64,000 nucleotides of DNA from an uncultured bacterium (GCA_963801165.1 CAWDDT010000007.1:1-64000); one strand, 5' to 3'; shown: positions 11,308 through 28,983, counted from the stretch's first letter. Numbers and translations: made by a program. The notes: generated by a model from the sequence alone, not told the origin.

Positions 11308-11309
11308 CC

Positions 11310-11943: not shown

Positions 11944-11969
11944 CCGAGCCGCAAGCACGACCCGCCAAA

Positions 11970-11990
11970 CGACCTTTGGGTTATGAGCCC
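11970..11990 (-). pseudogene. tRNA-fMet remnant (anticodon arm), att-like copy A
   Basis: Reverse complement GGGCTCATAACCCAAAGGTCG = initiator tRNA anticodon arm (CAT, three G-C pairs). Confidence 0.7.
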
Positions 11991-12134
11991 CTTTCCAGCG
12001 GTGTCGGTCGGGGACAGCTAATGCGGGAAAGTGCTGTCCAACGAGGCGTTTCGCGAATCGGCTTACGACGCGCGACGCAAGAACGAGGTTCGGCGATGGG
12101 CGACTTTCGGGTTCGGTGGTGGGGCTTCGTCGCA

Positions 12135-12446
12135 CTAGTTGAAATTGGCGATGGCCAGGGCAAGAGCCGTGATCAGAGAGCCCGAAGCGACGACCAATAC
12201 CCATGACACGATGACGGTGGTAGTCAGGAATCTGCCGTGACGCTGATGCGATCTCAGCAGAGCGATCACTCCGACCACAATGCCGACGAGGGTGCTTGCG
12301 ACAGTTACTAGGTTGTTGTCGAACCACCTCACCGAGATGAAGACGCCGATCAGCGACCCAACACCTGCGCCTGCTAGCAAACCGATGATCACATCGTGGA
12401 TCATCCATTGAGACCTCGGTGCGACGGTTGTTGACTCGACCGACAT
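12135..12446 (-). CDS. Small hypothetical membrane protein (3 TM)
   Basis: GAAGGA RBS then MSVESTT; three hydrophobic segments. Confidence 0.6.
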   Translation of the reverse strand: MSVESTTVAPRSQWMIHDVIIGLLAGAGVGSLIGVFISVRWFDNNLVTVASTLVGIVVGVIALLRSHQRHGRFLTTTVIVSWVLVVASGSLITALALAIANFN

Positions 12447-12651
12447 TCCTTCTCTCCTTCGCGAATCCGTATAGGTGGTAGAAATCACAGTCAGGCCACC
12501 AACCAGACCACCAACACCAGCACTACCGGGGGCCACACCCAACTGAGAACAGCTTGCGCATCGAGACCTGGCGTTCTCGAGTAACGGACACAGAGCGGCC
12601 AGCTCCGGGTAGCGCTCCTGGAGCTGGCCTTGATGGTGGTGGTCTTCGTTG

Positions 12652-13371
12652 TCACGCAGGCATGCCGGCCGAGATCGGTGAGGGCTTGAAGCCTTTGAAT
12701 GCCAGGTATGCGCCCAGGGAGAATTCCCACACTGCTATTGGAATTGTCGCAATCGCGGTTTGTGCGGAGGATGAATCCCAGGCACCGAACATCGTGCCGA
12801 CAAACGCGGCGATGAGTATCGGCGCCCCGATGAGTCCGAGCAGCGGGAGCTTCCTCGGCACTAGCCCCGACTGGTATAGCAGGGAGCCGAGCAGGAGCGC
12901 GTTCACGGCTGGTATGAAGCTCTGTGAGACGAGGAACGTCTTGTCATACAGCCCGACAAGGGCTTGGCCGGTGACCAACCCGTCTGCTCCAACTCCGGAC
13001 TGCCGTAGGGCCACGACTGTGAGGAGGCTGGCCACGCCAGCGAAGATCATGGTGCCTTCGAGGACGCGCGAACCGACGAGGCCCAATGCGCGCCCTTGGC
13101 TTTGTCTCTTGACAACCGGGTACAGCACGACGGCGGTGCCGATGCCGGCGAGAGCAACGATCAGTTCCAGGATGCCTCCGAAGAACACGCCGGTGTCCGA
13201 GCCGGAGCCGAGCATGAAATCCGCCTCGTGCACCGGACCGTAGAGGGCGAGGGTCGGAATCGAGACAAAGGTGATCAGGTAGAGCACTCCAGCCCAGAGC
13301 GATGTCTTCCTCAGTGAGTCCATCGGGACTCGTTTGTTTGCGACTGGTCGGTCGATGACGGTTGTTGCCAT
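12652..13371 (-). CDS. DUF4386-like membrane protein
   Basis: AGVLYLITFVSIP, AVVLYPV, GLVPR, WEFSLG..L.FKGF. Confidence 0.8.
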   Translation of the reverse strand: MATTVIDRPVANKRVPMDSLRKTSLWAGVLYLITFVSIPTLALYGPVHEADFMLGSGSDTGVFFGGILELIVALAGIGTAVVLYPVVKRQSQGRALGLVGSRVLEGTMIFAGVASLLTVVALRQSGVGADGLVTGQALVGLYDKTFLVSQSFIPAVNALLLGSLLYQSGLVPRKLPLLGLIGAPILIAAFVGTMFGAWDSSSAQTAIATIPIAVWEFSLGAYLAFKGFKPSPISAGMPA

Positions 13372-13459
13372 GGCCCTTGTCCTCTCTTCGATCTAAGGTC
13401 TTTCGTGCACGTACTATACACATGCGCAATATCTACGTGTGAAATAGTATGCTGCAGGC

Positions 13460-13987
13460 ATGACACAGTCGAGTTTTGTTGACGAGTCCGTGGCGGGCTG
13501 GAGCCGCCTCTTCCCGGATCGGGACATGCTCAGCCTGGGAGTCGTCCAACGCTTGGTCTGGAGCGGGCGTCTGGCCCACAAGCTCCTGGAACGGACTGCC
13601 ATCGCCTCCGGGCTGCAGAGGCGGGGCGACTACGAGGTGCTGGCGATACTGCGCCGGTACGAACCAACACTCCTCACACCCCTAGAGGTTGCACAACAGC
13701 TCCTGACTTCACCGTCGGGCATGACCGGCAAACTCGATCGACTCGAGGAACAAGGCCTCATCCAACGAACACCCGACCCCGAAGACCGAAGGGCGGTCAG
13801 ACTGAGAATCACCGACTCGGGCCGTACCTTGATCGACGAAGCGTTCACAGCCAGCCTCAGTGTGTACGAATCCATGCTTGATGAGTTGCCACACACCGAG
13901 GTAGAGAACCTAGAGGCCCTTCTCGAAAAACTCCTCAAACGACTAGACAACCTCACACAGACGAGCCAAACCAAGACCACAAGCTAG
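13460..13987 (+). CDS. MarR family regulator
   Basis: DYEVLAILRR, SGMTGKLDRLE..GLI.R..DPEDRR. Confidence 0.9.
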   Translation: MTQSSFVDESVAGWSRLFPDRDMLSLGVVQRLVWSGRLAHKLLERTAIASGLQRRGDYEVLAILRRYEPTLLTPLEVAQQLLTSPSGMTGKLDRLEEQGLIQRTPDPEDRRAVRLRITDSGRTLIDEAFTASLSVYESMLDELPHTEVENLEALLEKLLKRLDNLTQTSQTKTTS

Positions 13988-13989
13988 AG

Positions 13990-14140
13990 GTCAGCGTTCC
14001 AGCGCGGAGACGTGACGTGCGTTGTGAACATCGACTCGCCGTCGTCCATCTCGCTCCCGGAAGGTGAGCCGCTTATCAGCACCGAGCCGCTCACCGGAAA
14101 CCAGTTGCCCTCTGATGCAGCCGCACGGATTCTGACCGAG
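13990..14140 (+). pseudogene. C-terminal fragment of a GH13 alpha-glucosidase
   Basis: AFQRGDVTCVVNIDS..ISLPEGEPLISTEPL..LPSDAAA resembles actinobacterial GH13 C-termini; no start. Confidence 0.45.
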
Positions 14141-14228
14141 AGCGATTGATCGTACGAACTGTGCCGACAAGGCTGTGTCGACCCTCCGACGTTCGGGTTG
14201 TGAGCCTGACGATGGTCGGACGTACCGG

Positions 14229-14400
14229 TCACATGGGGGCGATGCCGCCGATGTCAATTGCCGCGGCGCCCTCCGCCATCCTCTTGTTGTACGTCACCAG
14301 CGCGTCCAGTTCGTCACCGATCTCCATGGCGGCGGCGAAGTGGAGCGCGTTGAGGCTTCGGAGGCGTATGTCCGGTTCCAGCACGGCCGCCCGCTCACAT
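14229..14400 (-). pseudogene. VapC/PIN C-terminal fragment
   Basis: LRSLNALHFAAA...LVTYNKRMAEGA corresponds to the LRSLDAIH..TYD.R motif, degraded. Confidence 0.6.
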
Positions 14401-14494
14401 AGAACAGACAATCGACGGCAATGCGCCTGAGACCATCTGAGTCGGCTGGCTCAGTCCACGACCATGTAGGGTCGTGAGCCGGACGGCGGGGATA

Positions 14495-14821
14495 GTGAAA
14501 GACGGAACATACCAATTCGTGGTGACGGCAAACAGCGGTGCGGTCGAAGCACTGGCAACCCTCGCGGGAGGAGCGATCGACGGTGCAAGTCTTGGCTACG
14601 AGTTCGGAGGTCGGCTGACCGCGATCGGCGACCGCGTCGAAGGTGTGATCACGGCGGTGTGGACGGGATCGTTGCCCCCTTCACTCGGTATGTTCAAGAG
14701 CATCTCCGTCCACGTCAACGGGCCGTACGATCCGGTCACCGGCGGGTTCACGTTGGAAGGGCAGGTCAGCGGTCATCACGTCGTCTCGATCAAGGTTGTG
14801 GCGACTCCGGTCCACAGCTGA
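14495..14821 (+). CDS. Hypothetical protein, GrlR-like beta barrel
   Basis: MKDGTYQFVV...GAIDGASLGYEFGG resembles the GrlR-family N-terminus. Confidence 0.45.
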   Translation: MKDGTYQFVVTANSGAVEALATLAGGAIDGASLGYEFGGRLTAIGDRVEGVITAVWTGSLPPSLGMFKSISVHVNGPYDPVTGGFTLEGQVSGHHVVSIKVVATPVHS

Positions 14822-14889
14822 GCTCAGGCTACGCGACGAAATCCGTTGGGTCGTGTGTACTCGCGGGCTGATCGCTTTTCGGGCGGGAG

Positions 14890-15208
14890 ATGCCGTCAGT
14901 AAAGACCCGAGGAGTCGGATTCCCCGAGGCACATCGTTGCTCTCGTGACCACTTGCGGTGTCGGTGCGACCACCAAAACGATCGAGCACGTCGATCCACG
15001 GAGATACCCGGTCAACTCTACTTACGATGCGCGACGGTCGCATCGAAGCAGGCGAAGGCTGAGCTGAAGAACACGACATCAGCATCATCGATGCCAACAC
15101 CGGAGAGATCCTTCGCCACCTCACCCTCAATCCCGACCACGACTACCAGCTCCAACCAAGAACCCCCAAACCGTAGGTTTGGGGGTTCCCGGTGTCTTGC
15201 GCATCACA
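14890..15208 (+). mobile_element. IS481-family remnant (degraded transposase C-terminus, hairpin, terminal repeat)
   Basis: IIDANTGEILRHLTLNPDHDYQ; hairpin 15160-15188; end TGTCTTGCGCATCACA 15193-15208. Confidence 0.7.
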
Positions 15209-15210
15209 AT

Positions 15211-15258
15211 TCGTACCGGGGTAGGGATCTGAGCCCACGACCTTCGGTTTGAGCGCCC
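15211..15258 (-). pseudogene. Degenerate tRNA-fMet 3' half, copy B
   Basis: TCGTACCGGGGTAGGGATCTGAGCCCACGACCTTCGGTTTGAGC aligns to copies D and E. Confidence 0.55.
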
Positions 15259-15331
15259 ACCTGGGAGGTGCGCGGTCCGCATTGAGTCCGCGAAACGCCT
15301 GGGCATTGACTGTTCTGACGCTGTAAGACCG

Positions 15332-16456
15332 CTAGCCGCCAACCGCCTGGTGGAGATAGCCGACGAGTTCGAACACCTTGTCCAGCGTCGTGTGGCCGCC
15401 CGGGTATTCGTCGAGCGTGACGTCGATCCCAGCTTCAGAAAGCCGCTGTGCCAGCAGCTGTCCGGCGTCGATATAGCTGACGACGCCGTCATCGAGCTGT
15501 CCGAGCTGCTCCAGGTCGGCGCGAATCGACCCGGAGGGGTCCCGCAGAGCGAGCCAACCGGGCACGTCCGACGCATTGTCAATGATCCTGGGGTTGGTGC
15601 CGTCGGATGCGATCCAGAGGAAGAACCTGGCGTCGAGATTCGGGGGCCAATAGCTCGGATCCGTCATTGCTGCCACCTCGGCCTGCATCGCCTCCGGGTC
15701 GGCGGCAAAGGCTTCGTCGAAGTTCTGGGAGTGCAGGAGGTACTCGCCGTCGCCGAGCACCACACCGACGGGCGGAGTGGGAGGCGCATCGGTTGCGCAC
15801 CCCTCGATCGGGGCGTCGATCGGTTCCAGCGAGCCGAACAGCGCCGGGCCGACCCCTGCCGAGAATCCGTACAGGACCGTGGCGGCGGGGTCGCCCCCGT
15901 AGCTGGCGGCGCTCTGTTGCGCAAAGGCGATCGCACAGTTCGCCGTCTCCTTCCATGCCTCGAAGGTGTCGACGGTGATGGGGAGGGCGGCGAAGTCGAC
16001 CCACGACGGCGTGAACACCACCATGCCCTGGGCTGCGGCTTCATCGGCAACAACGGTGGTCGCCATCTCGTCCTTCAGCTTGTCGTCGAACCCGTGGAAG
16101 GCAACGACGACCGGCCACGGACCTTCGCCCGACGCGGGGGTGCGGACGTCCATCGAGAAGTCGAAGGTATCCGTCTTCATGTAGACGAGATCGGTTGTCT
16201 CGGTGAATGCCTCATCATCATCGGCCGTCGCGCTTTCGTTCCCCGGGCTGACCGTGGTTGCCGGAGCCGCGACCGCGATGGCCGGAGCCTGGACCGTGGT
16301 GGCAGTTGTGGTGGACGTCACCGCCTCGCTCGTTGTGGTTCCGGCTGTGCCGGTCGAGCACGCGGCAGCGACCACACCGAGTACTATCACCGCGGCGAAC
16401 CTCAGTCGTCGTCCAGCTCCGCGGTCATCGCAGTGCTGGTTGTCTCTGTACCTCAT
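15332..16456 (-). CDS. Lipoprotein with alpha/beta hydrolase fold
   Basis: Lipobox AAAC, Thr-rich linker, PVVVAFHG, GFSAG, C-terminal GGH. Confidence 0.75.
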   Translation of the reverse strand: MRYRDNQHCDDRGAGRRLRFAAVIVLGVVAAACSTGTAGTTTSEAVTSTTTATTVQAPAIAVAAPATTVSPGNESATADDDEAFTETTDLVYMKTDTFDFSMDVRTPASGEGPWPVVVAFHGFDDKLKDEMATTVVADEAAAQGMVVFTPSWVDFAALPITVDTFEAWKETANCAIAFAQQSAASYGGDPAATVLYGFSAGVGPALFGSLEPIDAPIEGCATDAPPTPPVGVVLGDGEYLLHSQNFDEAFAADPEAMQAEVAAMTDPSYWPPNLDARFFLWIASDGTNPRIIDNASDVPGWLALRDPSGSIRADLEQLGQLDDGVVSYIDAGQLLAQRLSEAGIDVTLDEYPGGHTTLDKVFELVGYLHQAVGG

Positions 16457-16602
16457 ATCCGTGCCCTTCGCTCGCGTACTCCGCGGTCACTCGACCGCTG
16501 CTGTCACGGGAAAGGGTCACCGACGGGCATTAACAGAAGATTGCAGCGGCGTAGAGTCGACTGTTAACAGATCTGAAAGTGGAGGGCGGTTGTATCGCTG
16601 CC

Positions 16603-19600
16603 ATGGAGTTTCACGCGCTCGGTCGGCTGGCGGCATATCGCAACGGCGATGAGGTGGATCTCGGAACGCCCAAGCAGAAAGCGGTGTTGGCATTCCTCCT
16701 GATCAACGCGAACAGGCCCGTGTCCGTCGATCGTCTTCTCGACGCAGTCTGGGGCGACGACGGCCACGGCAAGGAGAACGCTCTGCGCGTCTACCTGTCC
16801 CGTTTGCGCTCGGCGCTCGAACCGGAGCGGCAACGAGGTGAGAGCTCCTTGTTGGCCAACCGCGGGAACGCATACCAGCTGACAGTCGACCCCGATCACT
16901 TCGATGTAGTCCAGTTCGAGCGGGAAGCCGCCGAGGGTCGCCTCCTGCTGAAGACTGATCCGGCAGCGGCAGCCAAGGTACTCACGTCCGCGCTGAGCCG
17001 GTGGAGGGGCCCGGCCTTCGACGATTTCGTCTATGACGATTTCGCACAGGTCGAGCGCATGAGGCTGAACGAGGCCCGGGTGACGGCGATCGAGGACCGT
17101 ATCGAAGCCGACCTGACCTTGGGTCTGGCCGGCGAACTCCTCAGCGAGCTCGAGGTGCTCAGAGACGAGCATCCGCTGCGAGAACGCCTGGTGTCGCACC
17201 AGGCGCTGTCCCTCTACCGAGCGGGCCGTCCTGCCGACGCGCTTCGGGCCATCGAGCGATTCCGTCGGTACGTGGGTGAAGAGCTGGGGATCGACCCCTC
17301 GCCACAACTCCTCCGTCTGGAGGAGCAGGTGCTGTTGCACGATCAGAGCATTCAGCCGCGAACACCGCGTGGAAGATCGCCGCTGGGTCAACCTGAGGCT
17401 GCAAATCCGTTCAAGGGGCTCCTGCCGTTCGGGCCCGAGGACGCCGAGTTCTTCTTCGGGAGAGATACCCTTGTAGCTGAGCTCCTTCGCATGCTCGGCA
17501 TTGGTCAGCGCGTCGTGGCGCTGGTAGGCGCCAGCGGGTCGGGGAAATCGAGTGTCGTTCGAGCCGGTCTCATCCCCGCTCTGGCAAAGGGCGCGATCGA
17601 AGGATCAGATCGATGGCTTGTCGCCAGCATGATGCCCGGATCCCACCCGTTCGCCGAGCTGGAAGCTGCGCTTCTCCACTCGGTGATCGATGGCCCCGAC
17701 AGCCTCGATGAGCAACTGCGGGACGGCAAGGCAGGGCTCCTTCGTGCTGCCCTACGGATCCTCCCCACCGAAGGCTCGCGCCTGTTGTTGATAATCGACC
17801 AGTTCGAGGAGCTCTTCACCATGGTCGACGGCGACGCCGTGCGCGAACGCTTCCTGTCGAACCTCGTCACAGCGGTGGATGACCCACATGATCGTATTTC
17901 AGTTCTGGTCACGCTGCGCGCTGACTTCTACGGGCTGCCGTTGCAGCACCCCGAGTTCGGCGCTCGTCTTGGCACCGGCGTCGTGAACGTCACACCAATG
18001 ACCGTCGAAGAACTCGAGGCCGCTGCGCTCAAGCCCGCAGAACGTGTCGGCGTCGGCTTTGAACCGGCGTTGCTCGGCCAGCTCATCGCAGATGTGGGCA
18101 GACAGCCGGGAGCGCTTCCCCTGTTCCAGTACGCGCTGACCGATCTGTTCGATCGTCGCGCCGGTGACACGCTGCTCGCGGCGACCTATCGGTCGATGGG
18201 CGGAATCGAAGGAGCGCTCCGCAGACGGGCAACCGACCTCTACCAGCAACTGGATTCCGCTCACCAGGAGGCTGCTCGCCAGCTGTTCCTCCGCCTGGTG
18301 TCCCTCACCGAGCAGGGCCAACGAAGCCGCCGACGTGTCGCGGCCAGGGACGTCGCCTCGCTGGCCGGGGACACGGTGACGATGCACGACGTGATCAACC
18401 TGTTCGGAGACCACCGACTGTTGTCCTTCGACGCTGATCCTCTCACGGGCGCACCGACCGTAGAGCTGGCACACGAGGCTCTGCTTGGAGCCTGGCCGAC
18501 GCTCGAAGGGTGGATCGATGAGTGTCGTGAGGACCTTCGCCGGCAGACTGCCCTGGCCGTGGCGGTGCGAGAATGGCAGCTGGCCGATCACGACCCCAAC
18601 TACCTGCTGCCGGCGGTGCGGCTCGCGGACTACGAAGAGTGGTGCCGCTCGTCACGCATGGCGCTCAACTCCGCCGAGCAGGCCTTTCTCGAAGCCGGCC
18701 GGGCACGCGCCGACGATGAGTCTGCCGCCGATGAACGCCGGCGTCAGGGCGAGGCCCGATCCCGGCGCAGGCTGCGGTTGCTGGTCGGCACATTGGCAGG
18801 CACACTGGGCGTCGTTGCGCTGGTACTCCTTGTGGTGTTTCTCCGCGGCGAGGATCCGACTGTGACGTTCTTCGACAGCCCCAGCTCCGCCTGGGACGCC
18901 AACATCGCGTCCGGGCTCGAGCGGGCAGATCGCGAGCTCGACATGTCTCTCGTCGATGTTCCCTGGGTTGTCGACCCCCCTGCGGAGCTCCGCGAGTTGG
19001 CGGCCACAGCCCCGGAGATCGTCATCATGGACGAGGCCGCGACCTCGCTCGATCCCAAAGTGATGGAAGGCTTTCCAGAGGTTCGATTCGGGATTATCGA
19101 CGGGACGGCTGAGGGGTCGAATGTCACATCGGCCGTGTTCGCCAACGAACAGGGTGGGTTCCTGGCGGGTGCCGCAGCTGCGCTGAAAAGCGAAACCGGG
19201 ATCGTGGGGTTCATCGGGGCTACCCAGCTCGCGACGGTCGAGCAATACCGGGCCGGCTTTGAAGCCGGCGTTCGATCCGTGTCACCGGAGACGATCGTTC
19301 TCGCAACATTCGTCGACCAGACCGGCGAGACAGATGGGTTCTCTCGCCCGGATTTTGCCGAGGCGCGGGCTGTCGCATTGTTCCAGCGGGGGGCCGACGT
19401 GATCTTTGCAGCAGCAGGTCAATCGGGCCTGGGGGTGTTCCGGGCGGCAGATACCCAATCGGCGGTCGTCGGCCGGGATTTGCAGGTGATCGGCGTGGAC
19501 AACGATCAATGGTTCGAAGTGCCGTTGGAGGAGCGGTCCCACGTGCTGACCTCGATTATCAAGCGGGGTGACCTCGCCGCCTACGAACTCGTCGAACACA

Positions 19601-20466
19601 TGCTGAGCGGGGGCCCACCGGGCGTAGCGGTTCGTCTCGGTCTTGCCGACGGAGGCTTCGAGTACTCCACACAGGGCGATGGGCTCACCGCGGACATGCG
19701 AGCCCGACTCGATCAGATCGTCGCCGACTTCGGCGAGGGCAAGATCGACGCTCCGTCGACTCCGACGGGGCCGCTGCTGACGCTCGATCTCGACGGCAAC
19801 GACGTGACCGACCCGGAGCCCGTGACCTACGAGCTGCCACCCGGCGTCGACGGGTTTGCTCAGGATGCACTGCTGGCCCCCGGGACGTACGAAGTGTCGG
19901 CACTCGGTACGCCGTTCACGATCACGATCGCCGGTGACTGGTTCGTGCAAGTCAACGAGCCGGGTCACACGGTCTTCAGCCACCCGGAAGCCGAGCGAAT
20001 GGGAGATCGAGATGTGGTCTTTCTCCGTCCGACGCTTCTTGCGGATCCCACCAATCCTGGGGCGAGCCTCGATCGACAGGTCTGGTGGCCGCTCGACGAC
20101 ATCGAAGGCTGGCTGGACAAACTGGTCGACGGCATCGTGGCAGCCGGCCCCGAGCAAACCGAGATCGGGGGCCGGCCCGCCGTCTACTTCGAGGTCGAGA
20201 TCACCAACGAAGACGTCTGCGGCACGTTCGGCTACTGCGCCGGCTTCATCATCAACACGTTCTACGACGTCGGCGGAATCAGCGGTCAGAGCTTTGAGCG
20301 AGGATTCCGACATCGGGTGTGGTGGGTGGATGGCGGCGACGAACCGCCTCTAGTGATCATCGCCAGCACCCGTAGCGGTGATCGGAGCTTCGAGGCCCGC
20401 GCCGACGAACTGCTCGGGAGCCTCGTGATCGGCGAGCCGGGTCCTCACCCGCTCGCCGGGGATTAG
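16603..20466 (+). CDS. SARP/BTAD regulator + nSTAND1-type NTPase + TM + BMP-family ligand-binding domain + extra C-terminal domain
   Basis: LGTPKQKAVL, HPLRERL (BTAD); NPFKGL..F, GASGSGKSS, IIDQFEELFT, LPLFQYAL, ELAHEAL; TM LVGTLAGTLGVVALVLLVVFL; NEQGGFLAG, GADVIFAAAG, IGVDNDQ (BMP). Confidence 0.88.
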   Translation: MEFHALGRLAAYRNGDEVDLGTPKQKAVLAFLLINANRPVSVDRLLDAVWGDDGHGKENALRVYLSRLRSALEPERQRGESSLLANRGNAYQLTVDPDHFDVVQFEREAAEGRLLLKTDPAAAAKVLTSALSRWRGPAFDDFVYDDFAQVERMRLNEARVTAIEDRIEADLTLGLAGELLSELEVLRDEHPLRERLVSHQALSLYRAGRPADALRAIERFRRYVGEELGIDPSPQLLRLEEQVLLHDQSIQPRTPRGRSPLGQPEAANPFKGLLPFGPEDAEFFFGRDTLVAELLRMLGIGQRVVALVGASGSGKSSVVRAGLIPALAKGAIEGSDRWLVASMMPGSHPFAELEAALLHSVIDGPDSLDEQLRDGKAGLLRAALRILPTEGSRLLLIIDQFEELFTMVDGDAVRERFLSNLVTAVDDPHDRISVLVTLRADFYGLPLQHPEFGARLGTGVVNVTPMTVEELEAAALKPAERVGVGFEPALLGQLIADVGRQPGALPLFQYALTDLFDRRAGDTLLAATYRSMGGIEGALRRRATDLYQQLDSAHQEAARQLFLRLVSLTEQGQRSRRRVAARDVASLAGDTVTMHDVINLFGDHRLLSFDADPLTGAPTVELAHEALLGAWPTLEGWIDECREDLRRQTALAVAVREWQLADHDPNYLLPAVRLADYEEWCRSSRMALNSAEQAFLEAGRARADDESAADERRRQGEARSRRRLRLLVGTLAGTLGVVALVLLVVFLRGEDPTVTFFDSPSSAWDANIASGLERADRELDMSLVDVPWVVDPPAELRELAATAPEIVIMDEAATSLDPKVMEGFPEVRFGIIDGTAEGSNVTSAVFANEQGGFLAGAAAALKSETGIVGFIGATQLATVEQYRAGFEAGVRSVSPETIVLATFVDQTGETDGFSRPDFAEARAVALFQRGADVIFAAAGQSGLGVFRAADTQSAVVGRDLQVIGVDNDQWFEVPLEERSHVLTSIIKRGDLAAYELVEHMLSGGPPGVAVRLGLADGGFEYSTQGDGLTADMRARLDQIVADFGEGKIDAPSTPTGPLLTLDLDGNDVTDPEPVTYELPPGVDGFAQDALLAPGTYEVSALGTPFTITIAGDWFVQVNEPGHTVFSHPEAERMGDRDVVFLRPTLLADPTNPGASLDRQVWWPLDDIEGWLDKLVDGIVAAGPEQTEIGGRPAVYFEVEITNEDVCGTFGYCAGFIINTFYDVGGISGQSFERGFRHRVWWVDGGDEPPLVIIASTRSGDRSFEARADELLGSLVIGEPGPHPLAGD

Positions 20467-20568
20467 CAAAGCGACCCCGGGCCGTCAGGAGACGACAGAC
20501 ATGACGCGCCGCCTCCAACGCACGCGATACAGAACCCGCAGGCCTACGACCAGACGGCATGACAGAGA

Positions 20569-21332: not shown

Positions 21333-22541
21333 ATGTTCGATACCGGCAGTACTGGTTTCATGTTGGTTGCGACCAGCCTGGTGATGCTGATGACGCCGGG
21401 TCTGGCGTTCTTCTACGGTGGGTTGGTAGGCCGCAAGAACGTGCTCTCCATCATGATGCAGAGCTTCGTTTCAATGGGTATTACGACGATTCTCTGGTAC
21501 GCGGTCGGGTTCTCTCTATGCTTCAGCGGAGGCAAGGGCGGGATCATCGGGAACCTTGACATGGCGTTTCTGCGGGGTGTCGATCCGACCACGCCGTTCG
21601 CCGCCGGTCACATCCCGCTGATGGTGTTCATCGCCTACCAGATGATGTTTGCCATCATCACCCCGGCGCTGATCACGGGAGCCTTCGCCAACCGCGTCCG
21701 CTTCGGGCCGTACTTGACGTTCCTGGTGACCTGGCTGATGCTGGTCTACTTCCCCTTTGTGCACATGATTTGGGGCGGTGGCCTGCTGGCTGAGTGGGGC
21801 GTGTTGGACTTCGCGGGCGGCATTGCTGTGCACAACATCGCCGGAATGGCAGCGCTGGCCTCGGTCCTGTTCTTGGGCCGGCGTCGGATCAAAGACCCGA
21901 GGCCCCACAGCATCCCCCTGGTGGCTCTTGGTACGGCACTGCTCTGGTTCGGTTGGTACGGCTTCAACGCCGGCAGTCAGTTGCAGGTGGATGGGATCAC
22001 GGCCCAGGCATTCCTCAACACCGATATTGCTGCGTCGTTCGCCGCGATCACCTGGATGTCCGTCGCGTGGGTCAGAGACAAGCGGCCCAGCTTCGTCGGG
22101 CTGCTCACCGGCGCGGTCGCCGGGTTGGCCACCATCACTCCGGCCGCAGGATTCGTATCCACGAACAGTGCCGTCATCATTGGTATCGTCGCCGGCCTTG
22201 CGTGCTATGCCGCCGTCGGGATGAAGAACGCTCTGGATTGGGACGACGCGCTGGATGTGTGGGGCGTGCACGGAGTCGGCGGCGCCGTTGGCGTTGTGCT
22301 GCTCGGCGTGTTCGCCAGCACCGCCGTCAACGCCGCCGGCGCGGATGGTCTCCTCCTTGGGGGCGGCAGCTTCTTCGGAAAGGAGCTCATCGCGGTCATC
22401 GCGTCCTCGGCGTACGCGTTCGCCTTCACCTACGGCATGCTCTGGATCATCAACAAGGTCACCCCGGTTCACACCACCGAGATCGAGGAAGGCGAATTGG
22501 ACGCCTCGCTGCTCGGCGAGTCCGCGTATGAGCAGTTGTAG
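21333..22541 (+). CDS. amt: Ammonium transporter
   Basis: TPGLAFFYGG, QMMFAIITPAL, DFAGGIAVH, LWFGWYGFN, DDALDVWGVHGVGG; AGGAGG RBS. Confidence 0.96.
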   Translation: MFDTGSTGFMLVATSLVMLMTPGLAFFYGGLVGRKNVLSIMMQSFVSMGITTILWYAVGFSLCFSGGKGGIIGNLDMAFLRGVDPTTPFAAGHIPLMVFIAYQMMFAIITPALITGAFANRVRFGPYLTFLVTWLMLVYFPFVHMIWGGGLLAEWGVLDFAGGIAVHNIAGMAALASVLFLGRRRIKDPRPHSIPLVALGTALLWFGWYGFNAGSQLQVDGITAQAFLNTDIAASFAAITWMSVAWVRDKRPSFVGLLTGAVAGLATITPAAGFVSTNSAVIIGIVAGLACYAAVGMKNALDWDDALDVWGVHGVGGAVGVVLLGVFASTAVNAAGADGLLLGGGSFFGKELIAVIASSAYAFAFTYGMLWIINKVTPVHTTEIEEGELDASLLGESAYEQL

Positions 22542-22582
22542 GGAACAGACGGCGACCGCAAGGGGACTTCCCCCGGCGCTGG

Positions 22583-22627
22583 GTTGTTGCGGATGGCGGT
22601 ACGACGCTCGGGTCTGAGCCCGACGAG
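22583..22627 (-). pseudogene. Highly degenerate tRNA-fMet 3' remnant, copy C
   Basis: TACGACGCTCGGGTCTGAGCCCGACGAG versus expected TACGACCTTCGGGTTATGAGCCCGACGAG. Confidence 0.45.
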
Positions 22628-22660
22628 TATGTGATCCCGACCGGTTCGATCACTTCGTCC

Positions 22661-24262
22661 TCATTGCAGCGCCTGCACCGCGGCGCGTTCAATCGCCAGC
22701 CCCTTCTGATGGCGGGCAAAGAACGCATCGAACCCGGCGACGTCTTGCGGGTCGGGAGTGACCGGGGCGCCGATGCTCCCCGCCATGACGCCGTCCAGGT
22801 AGTCGGGGAGTGACTGCCCGGCGTCGTCGCGAAGCATGTAGGCAGCGAGTACCGCCATGCCCCAGGCACCACCCTCGCCGGCCGTCGCCGGGAGGCTGAC
22901 GGGGACGTTGAGTGCGGCTGCCATCATCCGCTGCCCGGTGTCACCGCCCTTGAAGAAGCCGCCGTGCCCCCGGATCTCCTCGATGACCACACCCTCCTCC
23001 TCGGTGAGGATGTTCACGCCGCTACGGATTGCGCAGAGCGATGAGTAGAACATCGCCCGCATGAAGTTCTCGATCGTGAACCGGCCGTCCTGATTGCGGA
23101 CAACGAGCGGCCGACCCTCCACAAAGCCGGTGATGTGCTCACCGGAGACGTAGTTGATGGCGAGAAGCCCGCCTGCGTCGGGTTGGCCGGCGAGGGCGAG
23201 CGGGGGGAGCCTCTCGTAGAGCTCGGCCGGTGATGCCGGGGCGCCCAGTGCAGCCGCAACCTGGCCAAATAGGGCCAGCCAGGCGTCGAGGTCCGACGAG
23301 CCGTTGTTGGCGTGGACCATTGCCACCGGTCGGCCGTCCGGAGTCACGATGACGTCGATCTCTTCGTGGACGCGTGAGACGCTTCTCTCCAGCACGATCA
23401 TGGCAAAGACCGAGGTCCCTGCCGATACGTTCGCCGACCGGGGACGGACGGTATTGGTCGCCACCATGCCGGTCGCCGCGTCGCCTTCGGGTGCGCAGAG
23501 CGGGATTCCAGCCCCGAGTGCACCCGACGGATCCAGCAGCCTGGCGCCTTCAGGGGTCAGCGTCCCGGCGGGCACTCCCGCCGCCAGGACAGCAGGCAGG
23601 ACGTCGCCGAGTGTCCAGCTGAACCCGCGTGGTGCTATGAGTTCGTCGAACTTCGCCATGCGCCCGGCGTCCCATTCGCCGCTCACCGGGTCTATTGGGA
23701 AAATCCCCGAGGCTTCATCGAAGCCCGCGACGTGCTTGCCCGTCAGCCTCCAATGGACGTATGTCGCCAGCGTCTTGAGATGGGCCAAGTCGGTGAGATG
23801 AGGCTGTTCCTCGAGTATCGACTGATAAAGGTGTGCGATGGTCCAGCGCTGTGGCACCGCAAAGGAGAGGAGAGGCGTCAACTCTGCACACGCCTGCTCG
23901 GTGATGTTGTTGCGCCAGGTTCGGAACGGTACGAGCAGGTCGCCGTCGGCGTCGAGAGCTACGTAGCCGTGCATCATGGCGCTGATGCCGAGCGCGGCAA
24001 ACGTCGTGAGTTCCACACCGTGGCGCGCGCGGACATCCTCGACCAGCGACGCGTACGACCCCGCGAGCCCCTTCCACACCTCCGCCAAGTCATAGGTCCA
24101 CACCCCGTCCCGGAGCTGGTTCTCCCAGACATACGAGCCAGAGGCCAGGGGGGTTGTGTCCGGGCCGATCAACGCTGCCTTGATGCGGGTCGAGCCAAAT
24201 TCGATCCCAACGATCCCCCGGCCCGAACGGATCACCTCGACGCTGCTCGATACCTCGTTCAA
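22661..24262 (-). CDS. FGGY pentulose kinase (L-ribulokinase/xylulokinase-like)
   Basis: GIEFGSTRIKA, SAMMHGY, PFRTWRN, PEGDA, SAGTS, GHGGFF, EGGAWG. Confidence 0.88.
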   Translation of the reverse strand: MNEVSSSVEVIRSGRGIVGIEFGSTRIKAALIGPDTTPLASGSYVWENQLRDGVWTYDLAEVWKGLAGSYASLVEDVRARHGVELTTFAALGISAMMHGYVALDADGDLLVPFRTWRNNITEQACAELTPLLSFAVPQRWTIAHLYQSILEEQPHLTDLAHLKTLATYVHWRLTGKHVAGFDEASGIFPIDPVSGEWDAGRMAKFDELIAPRGFSWTLGDVLPAVLAAGVPAGTLTPEGARLLDPSGALGAGIPLCAPEGDAATGMVATNTVRPRSANVSAGTSVFAMIVLERSVSRVHEEIDVIVTPDGRPVAMVHANNGSSDLDAWLALFGQVAAALGAPASPAELYERLPPLALAGQPDAGGLLAINYVSGEHITGFVEGRPLVVRNQDGRFTIENFMRAMFYSSLCAIRSGVNILTEEEGVVIEEIRGHGGFFKGGDTGQRMMAAALNVPVSLPATAGEGGAWGMAVLAAYMLRDDAGQSLPDYLDGVMAGSIGAPVTPDPQDVAGFDAFFARHQKGLAIERAAVQALQ

Positions 24263-24360
24263 TGCAGACCTCCCAGGTCACCTGAGTCAGATGGAAACTG
24301 AACGTGCAAAGGCGACGATAGACCTTGCGACCCCACGACGATCCCTGAACCCAAGCTCAG

Positions 24361-25560
24361 CTATAGGGAGAAGAGCCGCTGTTCCGCTCCGAGATGTGGT
24401 GCCCAAGCGATCCGGCCCACGCGGGCGAAACGCATGTACGCGAGCAGCCCTTCGCGCATGGACACGACGAACCCGTCGGTACGGCTCGGGACGAAACCAT
24501 CTTCCCACCAGATGTTGAGCACCCGCACGCAGCCTTCGTCCACGTCGATTCGCGGCTCGATACGCCCCACGAGGTGATCGCCGAACATGATCGGCAGGAC
24601 GTACCAGCCCCAACGGCGCTTGGCCGCCGGGAAGTAGCCTTCCCATACGTATTCGAAGTCGAACAGCCTCGCGAGAAGGGCGGTGTCCCACAGCAACGAG
24701 TCGAACGGCGCGATGAAGGCGACAGAATGCGCCGGCTCTGGTGGTGTCTCTAGCAGCGCGAGTTCCTCGGCGACGACGAATCGTTTGCCGCGTATGCCTT
24801 CGACTTCGACGGTGACCAACGCGCCGGACTCGACAAGTTCCTTGTGCAACTGCCTGCGGTCCTGTGGATCCGCGATACGGGCGAAGGTGCCACCGGCGCC
24901 GCCGGCACCGAGCAGGCCGTGCGCCCGATACCGCGACAGCAGCTTGTGCCTGAGCTGATCACGCTCCGGCACCTCGTGGGAGAGCAAGTCAGGCGGCAGT
25001 AACCGCTCGAGCAGGTCGTAGTAACGCCGGTTGCCGTCGCGTCGCGCCAGGCCGAGCACGCCGCTGACCGTGTACGCCTCGAAAACGGCGCGCACCGCGT
25101 TTTCCGGCAAGCCGAACCAGTTCTTGGTCGGGCTGCTCTCACTTTCGAAGTCGGCCGAGGACATCGGCCCCTCCGTTCGGATCCGTTCGACAACGCGCTC
25201 GGCCACTGCGGCGTTGTCGGCGAGAGCCTGGGCGTGGAATCGGGGCCCTTTTCGGCCCGAATTCACCCGGAACCATGGGAACTCGCCGGCGAGTATGAAC
25301 GACAGTGCCTTGTTGGTGGTCTCGAAGATCTCACGCCGCTCGAACAGCTCGTCGCACCACGCAGGCTCGTATCCCGCGACGCGGGCATGCAGCACCAGAT
25401 CGTGGTTGCGGCCGGCCACCGCGATCGGATCGAACTGGATCGATCCCAACCGCCGCAAGACCTCCAGCACGCCGTCGGGTCCTCCCGCGACCGACCGCGC
25501 CGGCGCGAGGAAGTGCCGAGCGAGAAGAAAGCGACGCGCCGCATCGGCCGTGACCCGCAC
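24361..25560 (-). CDS. YcaQ/AlkZ-like (HTH_42) crosslink-repair DNA glycosylase
   Basis: IQFDPI (QxD), APFDSLLWD, FEYVWEGY.P..KRRWGWYVLP. Confidence 0.85.
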   Translation of the reverse strand: MRVTADAARRFLLARHFLAPARSVAGGPDGVLEVLRRLGSIQFDPIAVAGRNHDLVLHARVAGYEPAWCDELFERREIFETTNKALSFILAGEFPWFRVNSGRKGPRFHAQALADNAAVAERVVERIRTEGPMSSADFESESSPTKNWFGLPENAVRAVFEAYTVSGVLGLARRDGNRRYYDLLERLLPPDLLSHEVPERDQLRHKLLSRYRAHGLLGAGGAGGTFARIADPQDRRQLHKELVESGALVTVEVEGIRGKRFVVAEELALLETPPEPAHSVAFIAPFDSLLWDTALLARLFDFEYVWEGYFPAAKRRWGWYVLPIMFGDHLVGRIEPRIDVDEGCVRVLNIWWEDGFVPSRTDGFVVSMREGLLAYMRFARVGRIAWAPHLGAEQRLFSL

Positions 25561-25663
25561 CCGGCGAACCCTAGCGGTGGGGTCCCGCCAACAGCTTCAC
25601 CACACTGCTGCCAGAGAGAGACCCGACAACTGATTCAGGCCCCGGGCAGCAGGGACTTCCGGT

Positions 25664-25708
25664 TCGTGGCGGGGGGAGGATTTGAACCTCCGACCTTGGG
25701 GATATGAG
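25664..25708 (-). pseudogene. tRNA-fMet 3' half, copy D
   Basis: Reverse complement CTCATATCCCCAAGGTCGGAGGTTCAAATCCTCCCCCCGCCACGA: CAT anticodon, intact T-arm GGAGG-TTCAAAT-CCTCC, acceptor strand; 5' half absent. Confidence 0.75.
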
Positions 25709-25959
25709 TTACATGGCACGGTTCGGACACATATCGCTAGGTCGGCCCTCGTAGCCTCCAATCCGGTGGCTGGACCCATTGGTGATGCGCAATTCGGATG
25801 GAGACGATTCCCTCCGGCGGCGTTCGTCTGACGCCGTAGGGCACGCTCGGCCGACCAACCGAGGCATCCGGATTCATAGTCGATCCTGACAACATCTTGC
25901 GGGGGGGCTTCCCGGCGGTACGTTAGCCTCCGCTCGCCATTTCCGAGCAGCGGAGTCAT

Positions 25960-26335
25960 CTGCTCCCAGCAATCCCTGATCCGTTATTCCACCCACCGGC
26001 CAAAGGTTGGAATACGAAACGTGAACATCGTTCTCCTCGAGGATGGCAAGCTGGTGGAGGGTTGGTTCGGGATGGACCAACTGGTGGCGATGTAGCAGAT
26101 GGAGGCTGCCGAGTCTTCACCGCCCGGCCCGCTCAACCAAAGCGAACTGGACCAGCTTCGGGGGCTCGTGTTTCAAGCCGTTACCGATCAGAAACAGACC
26201 AGAAACCGCCCTCATCTCGATTCCCGCCCCGAGAATCAGGACACCGAGGTCGAGCGACTCATCCGCCGGACGAACCTGCTCGTGACGGCAGCCTGGAAGC
26301 GCCACGACCACGGTCGGCGGGCCGGTCACTGCTAA
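25960..26335 (+). pseudogene. SnoaL/ester-cyclase-like fragment
   Basis: IPPTGQRLEY..[shift]..NIVLLEDGKLVEGWFGMDQLVAM* with an internal TAG. Confidence 0.5.
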
Positions 26336-26358
26336 GGGCCGGACTGTACAATTCGCTG

Positions 26359-28197
26359 ATGCGAACGAGGGTCGGTCGGGTGTGGATTGCCGCTGCCAGT
26401 GTCTTGGTGGCTACCGCCTGCTCGGGCGGAGCGCAGCAGGAGGTCACAACCACCACCGCGACGAGCACGACCGTTGCCACGTTGGATCGCTCGACGAGCA
26501 CAACGGGCACGACGACGAGCACGACGACGAGCACGACGGAGGCGGCTGCGGCTTCCCACCGGTTCGACTACTCGAATGGTCCCGTCGTGGTGTTGCAGCC
26601 GCTGCCGCCGCTCACCGATCCGACGCTGCCGTTCGCTGCGGGGTCCGTGGACTACTTCGCCCTATTCGCACCGGATGCTCCTTGGACGGAAGCCGCCAAG
26701 AGGGTCGACGTCTTCGAGGTGCCGACGACATGGGTGCGGCACTACTCGACCGACGAACAGGTGCACGCCCTGATCGACGGTCTGGCGAGCCGTGGTATCG
26801 CCCTTTCGTTGCAGCTGGGCCCGCTCCCCGGCCCCGAAACCTCGGAGGGCTGCACAGGCGGCGAGAGCTACGGAGGGGTGTACGAGATCGAAATGATGCA
26901 GCGGATCATGGATCTCGGGGGCACCGTCGACGTCATCTCCTTCGATGAGCCCTACGCCTTTGGGCACAAGGCCGATGGTCCTACGAGTTGCGAGCGGCCC
27001 CTCGAGCAAATCGCCGCCGAGGCCGCTGGCTTCACCCGCTTGGCACGGGCCCTCAACCCGAATGTCATCGTTGGCGACATAGAACCGATGTGGGTCCAGC
27101 CCGAGATCGGTGCCGCCGACATGGCTGCCTGGCTTGACGCCTATGAGGCTGCTGCCGGTGAGCCGTTCGCATTCCTCCACATCGACATGGATTGGACCCG
27201 ACCCGGCTGGGCCCAGGTAGCCCGCCAGGTCGAAGCCGTTGCTGACGAACGGGACGTCCCGTTCGGAGTGATCTACTTCGGGGGGCCCGAAGGCACCTCC
27301 GATCAGACATGGATCCAACTCGCGGCCGAACACGCCTACGAGTTCGAGCAGGTCGCCGGGGGAACCCCGGCGGACATCCCGATCTCATCCTGGGAGGACT
27401 ACCCCCAGCGCACACTGCCGGAATCTGACCCCAACACACTCACCGGGCTCGTCGACCGCTACTTTGCGCCGAGAACGACCCTCACAATCACACAAGGAAC
27501 CGGGGCTTCCGGGGTGCTTCCGGTAGCCGCCACGCTCCAGACGACCACCGGCGAGGCGGTCGCCGACGCAAGCGTCTCCGTTGACGTGACCCCGCGGGAT
27601 GGTCAGATGCAGACACAGTCCACCACAGGCCGGGTGCCCGACAGCGCGGTGAGTGCCGTCGGCATCGTCAGGGTCAACACCGAAGGCGCCGGACCGGGCG
27701 CCACCGACATTCGTCTCTATGAAGCCACCTATTCGGACGACGGCGGCGCCAACGGACTCCCCGCGGTCACGCACACTGGCTGGGCACCGTATGGCGCCGG
27801 GTCCGGCACGTTCCCGGCTTCCGACCACGGGAGCGGAACGATGCTGCAACTCTCCGCACAGCCGGATCAGGATCTCTTCGTCGACTCGAGTGTGTTCCCG
27901 GTGACTGCCGGCACCGCCTTCGAATTCGCCGTCGACGACTCGGTACCCGAGACATCGATCGGCACCGCCTACGTCGGAGTCGTGTTCCTTGGCTCGGACG
28001 GCCTGGAGATCAGCAGAACGATCATCCCCTTCGAATCGGCACCACAGCGACTCGGGACGGTCAGGACGGACGCCTCAGGATCCGGTGTCGCCGACTTCGA
28101 CGGGCTTGGAGCAGGCAGATACTCGGTTCGGCTGTCCTACCCCGGTGACCTGAATCACTGGCCGAGCAGCAGTGACTACGACACGACGGTGGAGTGA
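26359..28197 (+). CDS. Lipoprotein of unknown function (putative TIM-barrel/glycoside hydrolase-like domain plus beta-rich domains)
   Basis: TACAAT -10 just before ATG (leaderless-style); lipobox ATAC; Thr-rich linker; SFDEP and GDIEP acidic motifs. Confidence 0.7.
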   Translation: MRTRVGRVWIAAASVLVATACSGGAQQEVTTTTATSTTVATLDRSTSTTGTTTSTTTSTTEAAAASHRFDYSNGPVVVLQPLPPLTDPTLPFAAGSVDYFALFAPDAPWTEAAKRVDVFEVPTTWVRHYSTDEQVHALIDGLASRGIALSLQLGPLPGPETSEGCTGGESYGGVYEIEMMQRIMDLGGTVDVISFDEPYAFGHKADGPTSCERPLEQIAAEAAGFTRLARALNPNVIVGDIEPMWVQPEIGAADMAAWLDAYEAAAGEPFAFLHIDMDWTRPGWAQVARQVEAVADERDVPFGVIYFGGPEGTSDQTWIQLAAEHAYEFEQVAGGTPADIPISSWEDYPQRTLPESDPNTLTGLVDRYFAPRTTLTITQGTGASGVLPVAATLQTTTGEAVADASVSVDVTPRDGQMQTQSTTGRVPDSAVSAVGIVRVNTEGAGPGATDIRLYEATYSDDGGANGLPAVTHTGWAPYGAGSGTFPASDHGSGTMLQLSAQPDQDLFVDSSVFPVTAGTAFEFAVDDSVPETSIGTAYVGVVFLGSDGLEISRTIIPFESAPQRLGTVRTDASGSGVADFDGLGAGRYSVRLSYPGDLNHWPSSSDYDTTVE

Positions 28198-28329
28198 AGC
28201 TTCTCCGGCAGCTTTTGAGAGCTCCACTGCGGCCCGAATCTGATCCCCGACCACGCGGAAACGCTCGTTGACCCCACCGAGCAGGACAGGGTCGGAGGTA
28301 GCTGATGCAACCCGTGCGGTGCGTGGTAC

Positions 28330-28869
28330 GTGCCGCCGACCGCGTCCCGCGGCTGTCCGAGGATCTCATCGCATACATTGGCGGGGACGAACACCCCGCG
28401 CTCATCCAAGGCTGTGATTGCTTTGGGACCAGCCGATAGCCCGGAGCGATCGGACGCGGCACATACCTGGCTTCGCACCTTCGCCGGCGCCACCCTCAGG
28501 GCATGTCAAGACGCCCAAACCTACGCCGTGCGGATCGACAGCCTGGTAGACCAATGGCGGAGTGCCCTCGGCACCGTCCGCAAAGGGTCGGCACTCGACC
28601 TCCTTCTCGACGTTCTACCCGACACTCCACTCATGACCGTCGACTCTGCCGCCCGGCTGGTCGACCGCTCCGATGTGGCGGTGGGGGCGGCCATCAACCG
28701 TCTCGCCGACGCCGAGGTACTCACCCAACGCAATATCGGCAAGCAGCGCTACCGGATCTTCGAGGCACCCGAGGTGCTCGAGCTCTTCACATCAATGGAA
28801 CGAGCGCTTGCCAGCCCGACCGGCGACACCACTACAGAGTCTCCTATCGGGCCGGTACCGAGACGATGA
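28330..28869 (+). pseudogene. Fic-family protein C-terminal (wHTH) fragment
   Basis: WLRTFA...AINRLADAEVL..RNIGKQRYRIFEAPEV..ERALASPTGDT; the HPFxxGNGR core is missing. Confidence 0.6.
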
Positions 28870-28921
28870 CGGCGCTAGCAAAACCTAGAGCCCTCGGACC
28901 TTTGCGGGCCTGAGGGCCCTT

Positions 28922-28969
28922 TCGTAGCGGGGGCAGGACTTGAACCCACGACCTTCGGGGGTTATGAGC
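28922..28969 (-). pseudogene. tRNA-fMet 3' half, copy E
   Basis: TCGTAGCGGGGGCAGGACTTGAACCCACGACCTTCGGGGGTTATGAGC; preceded on + by hairpin GCCCTC..GAGGGC. Confidence 0.75.
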
Positions 28970-28983
28970 TCGAGCCCGCTCCT

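Follow-up and report, generated by a model that had tools for sequence, protein, structure and literature searches.

The window analysed here, meaning the whole stretch of 64 kb, is the first part of contig C7 in the genome of an uncultured bacterium (G000; 4.55 Mb, 64% GC, 13 contigs, estimated bin contamination of 5.6%) from a soil and salt-marsh lineage of the Acidimicrobiia, phylum Actinomycetota. Between a conserved alpha/beta hydrolase gene and a conserved PHP-domain gene, it holds six remnants of an initiator tRNA (tRNA-fMet), numbered F1 to F6 from left to right, with blocks of DNA (A to E) between them. From the PHP gene outward, in the sense of the tRNA, the order was F6, block E, F5, block D, F4, block C, F3, block B, F2, block A, F1, a PIN-domain gene and the hydrolase gene. 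The zone from about 11.3 to 28.97 kb is probably an old tandem array, by now fixed, which arose from five or six small integrative islets and has decayed to a state like that of cis-mobilisable elements (CIMEs).

Remnants of the initiator tRNA and the blocks between them

The sole initiator-type tRNA-Met(CAT) gene of G000 was located at C11:4064-4138 on the minus strand, and its 1:72 mismatch and GGG/CCC anticodon stem were read from the sequence. This tRNA was compared with the whole genome by blastn-short, and an nhmmer profile was trained on nine fMet copies, all from outside the window, with genome-wide E-values. Thirty related genomes from 12 families of the order were also compared (G003, G004, G005 and G014 are named below; the unpublished G021 is present only in tallies over relatives, and no claim is based on it). 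The sequence-only reading of this stretch had described five co-oriented 3' halves of the initiator tRNA. All five were matched by blastn-short on the minus strand, and a sixth site, F2, which was missing from that reading, shared the orientation, so six of the six remnants lie on one strand. The profile recovered five of them at E-values from 5e-13 to 0.018. Furthermore, an 18-nt T-arm pattern with at most three mismatches hit the sequence 3 times where 0.23 hits were expected, a number seen in 0 of 100 shuffles. Five of the six remnants were thus better than chance genome-wide.

The best-kept remnant is F6 (28921..28973, minus strand), the anchor of the array, a 3' half with tRNA positions 29-74 followed by ACGAA (blastn 28973-28926, 87.5%, E 6e-8; nhmmer 28919-28972, E 5e-13). 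It begins 10 nt past the stop codon of the PHP gene, and its anticodon stem has a 2-nt insertion and one mismatch. F5 (25663..25711, minus strand) is a 3' half with positions 34-73 plus ACGAA (blastn 25708-25669, 90%, E 4e-7; nhmmer E 4.7e-10), and F3 (15210..15258, minus strand) is a 3' half with positions 31-72 and then ACGAA (blastn 15258-15218, positions 31-70, 80%, E 0.003; nhmmer 15208-15254, E 1.8e-6). These three extend to the acceptor end, and most of their core is kept at 80-90% identity. The other three are internal pieces, with 22-35 nt of anticodon-arm sequence, and have lost the T-arm and acceptor part. F1 (11969..11990, minus strand), at the left edge of the array, retains only positions 31-52 of the anticodon stem-loop region (blastn 95% over 22 nt, E 0.06; nhmmer E 0.0026), and F2 (14178..14212, minus strand) retains positions 26-58 (blastn 14212-14180, 85% over 33 nt, E 0.003; nhmmer 14178-14208, E 0.018). 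F4 (22600..22627, minus strand), directly past the stop codon of the FGGY kinase gene, is eroded to positions 25-53 with an indel (blastn 25/29, 86%, genome-wide E 0.17). It was not recovered by nhmmer at E ≤ 10 genome-wide and is the weakest site, resting on the blastn match plus its place and orientation. The differing decay of the sites in the sequence-only reading was borne out, and erosion rises broadly with distance from the PHP gene.

F6 may also be a nearly full-length tRNA pseudogene, the blastn match in G003 reaching tRNA position 9 at 75%. The extra 5' part of this match overlaps the last codons of the PHP gene and is poor in G000.

No tRNA gene was found in the window by ARAGORN. 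The search of the whole window against Rfam at E ≤ 10 gave no tRNA match and no other credible family; half tRNAs are invisible to Rfam. Random similarity between GC-rich sequences, or a contig joining different organisms, is a very improbable source of the remnants. The genome-wide E-value of F4, the short F1 and F2 and the bin contamination could be cited for it; against it stand three sites with E ≤ 2e-6 under a profile trained elsewhere, the single strand of all six sites and the outcome of the motif shuffles. In addition, assembled contigs from four public runs of three studies (soil and salt marsh, 95-100% identity) independently cover the whole stretch and bridge five junctions (F1, F2 with F3, F3, F5 and F6) in the same layout.

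The well-kept copies have a common anatomy, which runs from the anticodon stem and loop to position 74, then to ACGAA and usually to a stable hairpin. The same layout was found at copies on C8, C5 and in G014. Across the order, the 5' ends of the fragments cluster at tRNA position 29 or 34, in the anticodon stem and loop; in the 30 relatives, fragments starting at these positions are common, with up to eight matches per genome. Such clustering is of the anticodon-centred att type, which the Islander study describes for tRNA-targeting islands (PMC4383910). Within the arm downstream of F3 (15069..15209, minus strand), a strong hairpin is predicted at about 15157-15192 (−34.6 kcal/mol; z −7 compared with shuffles). 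The arm shares homology with the one next to the exact 41-nt fragment on C8 (76% identity to C8:6597-6784) and has copies in G004 and G005 with 80-85% identity. By its conservation, this stretch of about 140 nt resembles what would be expected of an attP arm. A further hairpin (28888..28920, minus strand) follows F6 and its ACGAA, with a fold of −24.4 kcal/mol (z −2.4), and the flank of F5 showed no excess fold stability (z 0.05 against shuffles). A scan for terminator and promoter patterns in 11-30 kb stayed at the shuffle level (9 found against 9.5 expected) and missed the hairpins after the halves, which have no T-runs.

The working tRNA gene of G000 is followed by GGGAC, not by ACGAA. This trailer stands at C11:4055-4064, beside the sole initiator tRNA, and nearly all fMet halves of G000 continue with A, as do most of those beside integrases in other Acidimicrobiia. 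Of 60 trailers scored, 23 were ACGAA, 14 were ACTGA and 7 were ACCAA. The working gene may have an unusual discriminator base or a swapped trailer.

The alpha/beta hydrolase gene (10092..11249, plus strand; 75% identical to G005) is the conserved left backbone. At the right border, the conserved backbone begins with the PHP-domain gene (28984..29868, minus strand; PF02811), and the PHP, metallo-beta-lactamase and following genes right of F6 have 73-81% DNA identity in at least 8 congeners. A PIN-domain (VapC-like) region (11250..11968, plus strand; gene 11443-11943; PF01850, E 7.5e-10) lies between the hydrolase gene and F1. The PIN gene is missing from the syntenic place in G005, homology to which ends at 11259.

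The blocks between the remnants are of about 1-7 kb, each with 1-4 genes, on both strands and with their own regulators included. Block A (11991..14177; GC 59.4%) carries DUF4386 (12652-13371, minus strand) and MarR (13460-13987, plus strand) genes by Pfam, and was found in G003 at 78-84% identity in another neighbourhood. Block B (14213..15068) has a gene for a small GrlR-like protein (14474-14821, plus strand; PF16518) and no transposase, and its remaining open reading frames (ORFs) had no Pfam match. By Pfam, block C (15259..22599) contains genes for an esterase-like protein (15332-16456, minus strand), a BTAD/STAND regulator with a Bmp domain (16579-20466, plus strand) and an ammonium transporter (21333-22541, plus strand), together with an orphan ORF (20569-21024, plus strand); relatives match it at 65-71% only. 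Block D (22628..25662, minus strand) holds an FGGY sugar kinase gene (22661-24262) and an AlkZ/YcaQ-like glycosylase gene (24361-25560), both by Pfam, with no counterpart among the matches listed for the 30 relatives; taken together, blocks C and D have no close counterpart among these matches. Block E (25712..28887, plus strand) encodes a 711-aa secreted protein (26062-28197) and a 5'-truncated Fic protein (28330-28869). The large protein has 38% identity over 535 aa to a copy in an fMet island of G014, and the Fic ORF corresponds to the last 148 residues of a 422-aa protein, with 81% identity to the G014 copy. A gene pair in the fMet islands of G014 and G005 has its diverged counterpart in block E.

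By Pfam content, the blocks are accessory and mutually unrelated, as had been proposed, and none contains an integrase. Most of the contents named in the sequence-only reading were recovered, with two exceptions: the presumed lipoprotein at 15332-16456 matched the esterase family BD-FAE, and IS481 was not supported, since no rve domain was hit on C7 and ORFs 14681-15130 and 14890-15252 had no Pfam match. Of its truncated genes near the junctions, one was confirmed, the Fic gene. In a contig of run X5 (salt marsh), 700 nt of block C (20550-21251, with the orphan ORF) were swapped for 21 other letters, a strain-level indel away from any tRNA half.

An integrase family specific for tRNA-fMet

An intact tyrosine integrase of 402 aa (PF00589, E 2e-26) was found in G014, where 84 nt separate the end of its gene from an exact fMet half of 46 nt. 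The gene belongs to a 7.1-kb unit bounded by two exact 46-nt halves, the cargo of which is an AbiEi/AbiEii pair and a nuclease-like gene; no transfer, conjugation, mobilisation or replication genes were recognised in the unit. Relatives of this integrase were sought in 185,579 species genomes, and 70 loci were obtained, mostly in metagenome-assembled genomes (MAGs) of Acidimicrobiia. An intact tRNA-Met(CAT) lay on the opposite strand, 82-171 nt past the integrase end, at 29 of the 70 loci. Only an fMet half was present at 27 loci, 6 of them at a contig end; the other 21 had space for a 5' half and none was present, which indicates that the integrase sits inside an array. Altogether, tRNA-Met(CAT) or an fMet half stood just past the integrase gene at 56 of the 70 loci, which is the specificity for one tDNA that the Islander scheme looks for. 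Two loci were beside tRNA-Asn, 5 ended too soon to judge, and 7 showed nothing despite sufficient space, although 6 of these 7 were ≤32% identical to the query. From the context of the 70 loci, the integrase family is therefore specific for tRNA-fMet.

G000 holds only two broken pieces of this cognate integrase, both on contigs other than C7. The region C8:15798-16243 corresponds to integrase residues 17-165 (86% and 59% identity in two frames), and C5:548183-548292 is a scrap of 38 residues beside the C5 fMet fragment. Another 20 integrase-domain genes occur elsewhere in G000, many beside other tRNAs, and the best of them is 37% identical to the cognate integrase. On C7, no recombinase domain was found (PF00589 at E ≤ 1, PF00239 and PF00665, rve), and tblastn of the cognate integrase gave no match on this contig at E ≤ 1e-3. 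Integrase debris was sought by Pfam in the orphan ORFs 11878-12408, 12135-12542, 13984-14232, 20569-21024, 20685-21137, 25597-25959 and 28503-28913, and nothing relevant was obtained. Thus the intact tRNA-fMet or integrase that the sequence-only reading had thought of nearby was absent, the former from the window and the latter from C7.

Islands at other tRNAs were also seen in G000. At least 8 intact tyrosine integrase genes lie within 1 kb of tRNA genes for Pro, Arg, Thr, Ile, Ser, SeC (selenocysteine), Val and Lys, so that tRNA-targeting islands are general in this genome. The match at C9:426588-426626 was dropped from the fMet counts, as it is really a tRNA-Lys(TTT) 3' half; it lies 18 kb from the intact tRNA-Lys (C9:444755-444829), with an integrase gene (C9:444087-444608) and three rve transposase genes between, in a separate classical tRNA-Lys island. 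To the right of the array in the window, a repeat of some 100 nt lies at 38933-39037. Each of its four further copies in G000 is no more than a few kb from an integrase gene, and one of them (C13:67855-67949) directly follows the integrase gene C13:66956-67780. Next to the repeat in the window, 41-43 kb has a GC of 0.59 and no ORF with high GC at third codon positions, and 38.8-43.0 kb may be another island remnant. Moreover, a dispersed repeat family occupies 32811-33351, upstream of a C_GCAxxG_C_C gene with its apparent real start at about 32.7 kb. Its units of about 75-190 nt are often tandem, with more than 100 copies over most contigs at 75-98% identity, and the long ORF drawn across the stretch translates to nonsense-like sequence. 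The family may be a repetitive extragenic palindromic (REP)-like element or one like a miniature inverted-repeat transposable element (MITE).

The PHP border and the movement of modules

The distance between the hydrolase and PHP genes is 4.3 kb in G005 and 17.7 kb in G000. At the PHP gene, G005 has only an 18-nt scrap of a fragment, and G014 has 52 nt and no fragment between the PHP stop codon and the next gene. A good fragment, with a complete anticodon stem-loop, occurs in G003 at the same PHP-side place, and its homology with G000 ends about 10 nt past the ACGAA of F6. The last PHP codons differ among the four genomes exactly from the start of the tRNA-like sequence, which places the insertion site right at the end of this gene. 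The edges of the fragments are exactly where homology between genomes breaks off; a comparison of relatives at these sites had been suggested in the sequence-only reading. The idea that PHP was the ancestral neighbour of tRNA-fMet was examined by tblastn of PHP against the 70 integrase loci, with no matches; the gene upstream of the G000 tRNA-fMet also gave none.

The only notable branch points among the run contigs were in run X1, at 11955, 11987 and 28987, the two outer edges of the array, which suggests a co-occurring variant with different content between the PIN and PHP genes. No trustworthy joint at a half was found in the run contigs, which cannot reveal rare excision. The skips 11451>18603 and 18057>28476 in run X6 were disregarded, having only 21-22 nt on one side.

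G000 has 12 fMet fragments in total, with six on C7, three on C8 (one an exact 41-mer) and one each on C3, C2 and C5. They fall in three loci, two of which hold integrase remnants, and do not have the many copies, common ends and non-island sites of a dispersed repeat like a MITE or a short interspersed nuclear element. C8 (21 kb) and C3 overlap head to head, their first 1164 nt being reverse-complementary at 99.9%, and the end of C2 is 99.9% identical to C3:24152-25652, so that C2 rejoins C3 at 24 kb. Accordingly, C8 and the start of C3 make up the main fMet island, of which the assembly holds a second, alternative version on C2; the two versions point to strain heterogeneity. The classical layout is seen in G005, where tRNA-fMet (C2:69814-69887 of that genome) is followed by four co-oriented fragments within 30 kb.

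Under the decayed tandem array proposed at the outset, each islet would have been inserted by a tyrosine integrase recombining in the anticodon arm of the initiator tRNA gene. The attP of the element would bring along a tRNA copy that starts in the anticodon stem or loop, extends to the 3' end and is followed by ACGAA and the hairpin. Each insertion at the same site would push the prior element outward and leave one co-oriented 3' half between neighbours. Instead of the working tRNA-fMet gene, the target in the window would be a site resembling tRNA-fMet that is joined to the PHP gene at its 3' end, with the newest scar beside PHP and the most eroded scars farthest away. Each block may once have been an independent element. 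The integrase genes would later have been lost, and the cargo would remain, namely the regulators, the transporter, the kinase, the glycosylase, the toxin-type PIN gene and the truncated Fic gene. The fMet-type site at the PHP end may have been a secondary attB, a relic of a second tRNA-fMet gene or the result of an att-mediated inversion. In G000 the array is probably not active. The part of the sequence-only reading that saw serial integration scars at tRNA-fMet-type att sites is supported, as are the unrelated accessory blocks without an integrase and the homology breaks at the fragment edges.

Several points weigh against this account. F4 is short of significance, and F1 and F2 are short. 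The GC of blocks C to E equals that of the backbone, so they bear no compositional sign of foreign origin. No integrase remnant was found inside the blocks of the window, and six clean losses must be assumed. There is no intact tDNA at the array end, where F6 abuts the PHP stop codon. Furthermore, the array runs in the opposite direction to the main fMet island, at a distance of about 230 kb as judged from the contig overlap and from synteny with G005 and G014; the probable contig order is C11 (with tRNA-fMet), C8, C3 and then C7. Instead of accreting in situ, the array could have moved there as a whole.

A further point of this kind comes from the main island. The region C8:18013-20155, with GH18 and YjbR-like genes, two halves and no recombinase, is 98.9% identical to G005, and C8:18114-20020 of the same module is 99.3% identical to G014. 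By comparison, 8.5 kb of backbone-like genes on C8 are only 75-77% identical to these two genomes. The module was found in 2 of the 30 relatives only (G005 and G014), which themselves are 11-21% different around PHP, and in G000 and G005 the near-identical stretch begins exactly at the ACGAA of a half. From the contrast between 99% in the module and 75-77% in the backbone, integrase-less modules have crossed species borders recently. They moved either within larger composites or with help in cis or in trans, and this finding is as compatible with mobilisation as with decay. The accretion of CIMEs and integrative and conjugative elements (ICEs; PMC5704250) offers examples of both routes, which have also been proposed for Dehalococcoides (PMC3146451). 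In G014, moreover, blocks of 0.85 and 1.0 kb lie between halves, two of which are exact copies.

Such modules bear on the proposal of the sequence-only reading that the window is a working, integron-like platform mobilised in trans. The halves would then be live sites, and the blocks would be captured, excised and exchanged by an fMet integrase encoded elsewhere or delivered by an arriving element, as in an integron or a chain of CIMEs. The lack of a recombinase in any block, their cassette-like size of 1-7 kb, the near-identical module on C8, the small blocks in G014 and the homology breaks at half edges all agree with it. However, three of the six sites in the window have no T-arm and acceptor part, and the anticodon stem of F6 is damaged. 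No intact cognate integrase is present besides the two remnants, and the integrase genes most similar to it are at other tRNAs. Neither an IntI-type gene nor attI, attC or a common promoter was found, and genes run in both directions within blocks. The contigs of three studies bridge F1, F2 with F3, F5 and F6 identically, although rare excision would not be visible in them. An active integron-like system is thus improbable, because erosion has left half of the sites unfit to work and strains from three studies share one layout, and this part of the sequence-only reading was not retained. It is also unlikely, if slightly less so, that the combination of fMet 3' half, ACGAA and hairpin serves in Acidimicrobiia as a portable cassette boundary for integrase-less modules of 1-7 kb, which fMet-specific integrases would capture, stack and pass from species to species in trans. 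The modules would then pile up not only at the one initiator tRNA gene but also at secondary sites, for instance the PHP end. If so, this would be a tRNA-based analogue of the integron, with the window as an old, silted-up platform and the GH18/YjbR module in three species as a live one. There is, in all, a small chance that the array reflects a more organised cassette system.

The distribution of modules raises one more alternative, a recombination hotspot, which the sequence-only reading had also considered in the form of a dispersed tRNA-derived repeat. The halves would have arrived with one or a few composites, or by translocation or inversion out of the main fMet island, and the mosaic would be due mainly to homologous recombination or deletion between repeats of 40-50 nt. 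In its favour, what comes after the Fic gene is a half in the window and the GH18 module in G014; block A stands beside C8-like genes in G003; and the genes beside PHP in G005 and G014 have their most similar copies in the main-island zone of G000 (C3:11.7-12.1 kb and C1). The inversion of the array relative to the main island and the alternative path of that island on C2 also agree with it. On the other hand, divergence of the repeats in the window (75-90% identity over ≤40 nt) has by now gone too far for efficient homologous exchange, and the conserved arms beyond the tRNA part and the tie to an integrase point to site-specific events. A hotspot accounts for reshuffling, not for the origin of the halves. 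It is doubtful as the main cause; as a secondary effect it is retained, since modules occur in differing contexts, and the copies are att remnants tied to an integrase, not self-propagating repeats.

Comparison with known systems

The tandem-array account explains a strain-variable zone of 17 kb in an uncultured lineage of Acidimicrobiia from soil and salt marsh, and it presents the single initiator tRNA gene as a favoured landing site of a widespread integrase family in this group. In addition, arrays of fMet scars could serve as markers of accessory DNA in fragmented MAGs.

The mechanism proposed for the array is the usual one for tRNA-targeting islands. The tRNA-island arrays of the Islander study (PMC4383910) are similar in their co-oriented target 3' fragments at island ends, their anticodon-centred att and their site-specific family of tyrosine integrases. 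In the window, co-oriented end fragments are present, F3, F5 and F6 reaching the acceptor and F1, F2 and F4 being internal. By the Islander rules, every island has to carry an integrase and an intact tDNA has to stand at one end, neither of which was found here. Arrays of three or more were rare under these strict rules, with 4 among 3919 islands (Hudson, Lau and Williams 2015, PMC4383910). The ssrA islands of Dehalococcoides (McMurdie et al. 2011, PMC3146451) also resemble the array, with many tandem islands, direct repeats of the target 3' end and a strain-specific accessory zone. According to that report, an integration module is missing from 15 of the islands, for which a cis-mobilisable or a fixed state is discussed. 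The Dehalococcoides islands differ in their tmRNA target, 20-bp repeat and serine recombinase, and their arrays begin at an intact ssrA (PMC3146451).

Accretion of CIMEs, ICEs and integrative and mobilisable elements is another close parallel. Elements that lose integration and transfer genes stay flanked by att sites, newcomers enter the att of a resident, and composites can move together (PMC5704250). This was described for streptococcal ICE/CIME systems (Pavlovic 2004 and Bellanger 2011, as cited in Guedon et al. 2017, PMC5704250). The blocks of the window likewise have no integration or transfer genes. However, working att sites are part of the CIME definition as given there (PMC5704250), whereas half of the sites in the window are eroded, and the intact relative in G014 showed no genes for conjugation or mobilisation. 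In the tycheposon islands of Prochlorococcus (Hackl et al., bioRxiv 10.1101/2020.12.28.424599), older elements are displaced deeper into the island as new ones keep integrating at a single tRNA, and degenerate elements, broken integrases, scattered partial tRNAs and small niche-type cargo are described. These islands belong to another phylum and apparently another integrase lineage and lie beside intact tRNA genes, and tRNA-Met has 0 occurrences in the searched text of that preprint (bioRxiv 10.1101/2020.12.28.424599). Integrons share with the array a one-directional row of short blocks split by a repeated recombination site. Unlike them, the window has no IntI, attI, Pc promoter or attC hairpins; its blocks are multi-gene, run both ways and carry their own regulators, and its repeat sites derive from a tRNA gene.

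The array departs from Islander arrays in two respects and from integrons in all the defining ones, and the most fitting name for it is a CIME-like tandem array, now decayed, at a secondary site of the tRNA-fMet type. Other phyla have already provided descriptions of tandem accretion, of scattered partial tRNAs and of decay into blocks that resemble CIMEs. Two points go slightly beyond the textbook picture, namely the position of the array, at a secondary site that has no tRNA gene and is joined to a protein gene at its end, and the nearby evidence of recent movement of integrase-less modules between species. Neither of them overturns current ideas about such systems.

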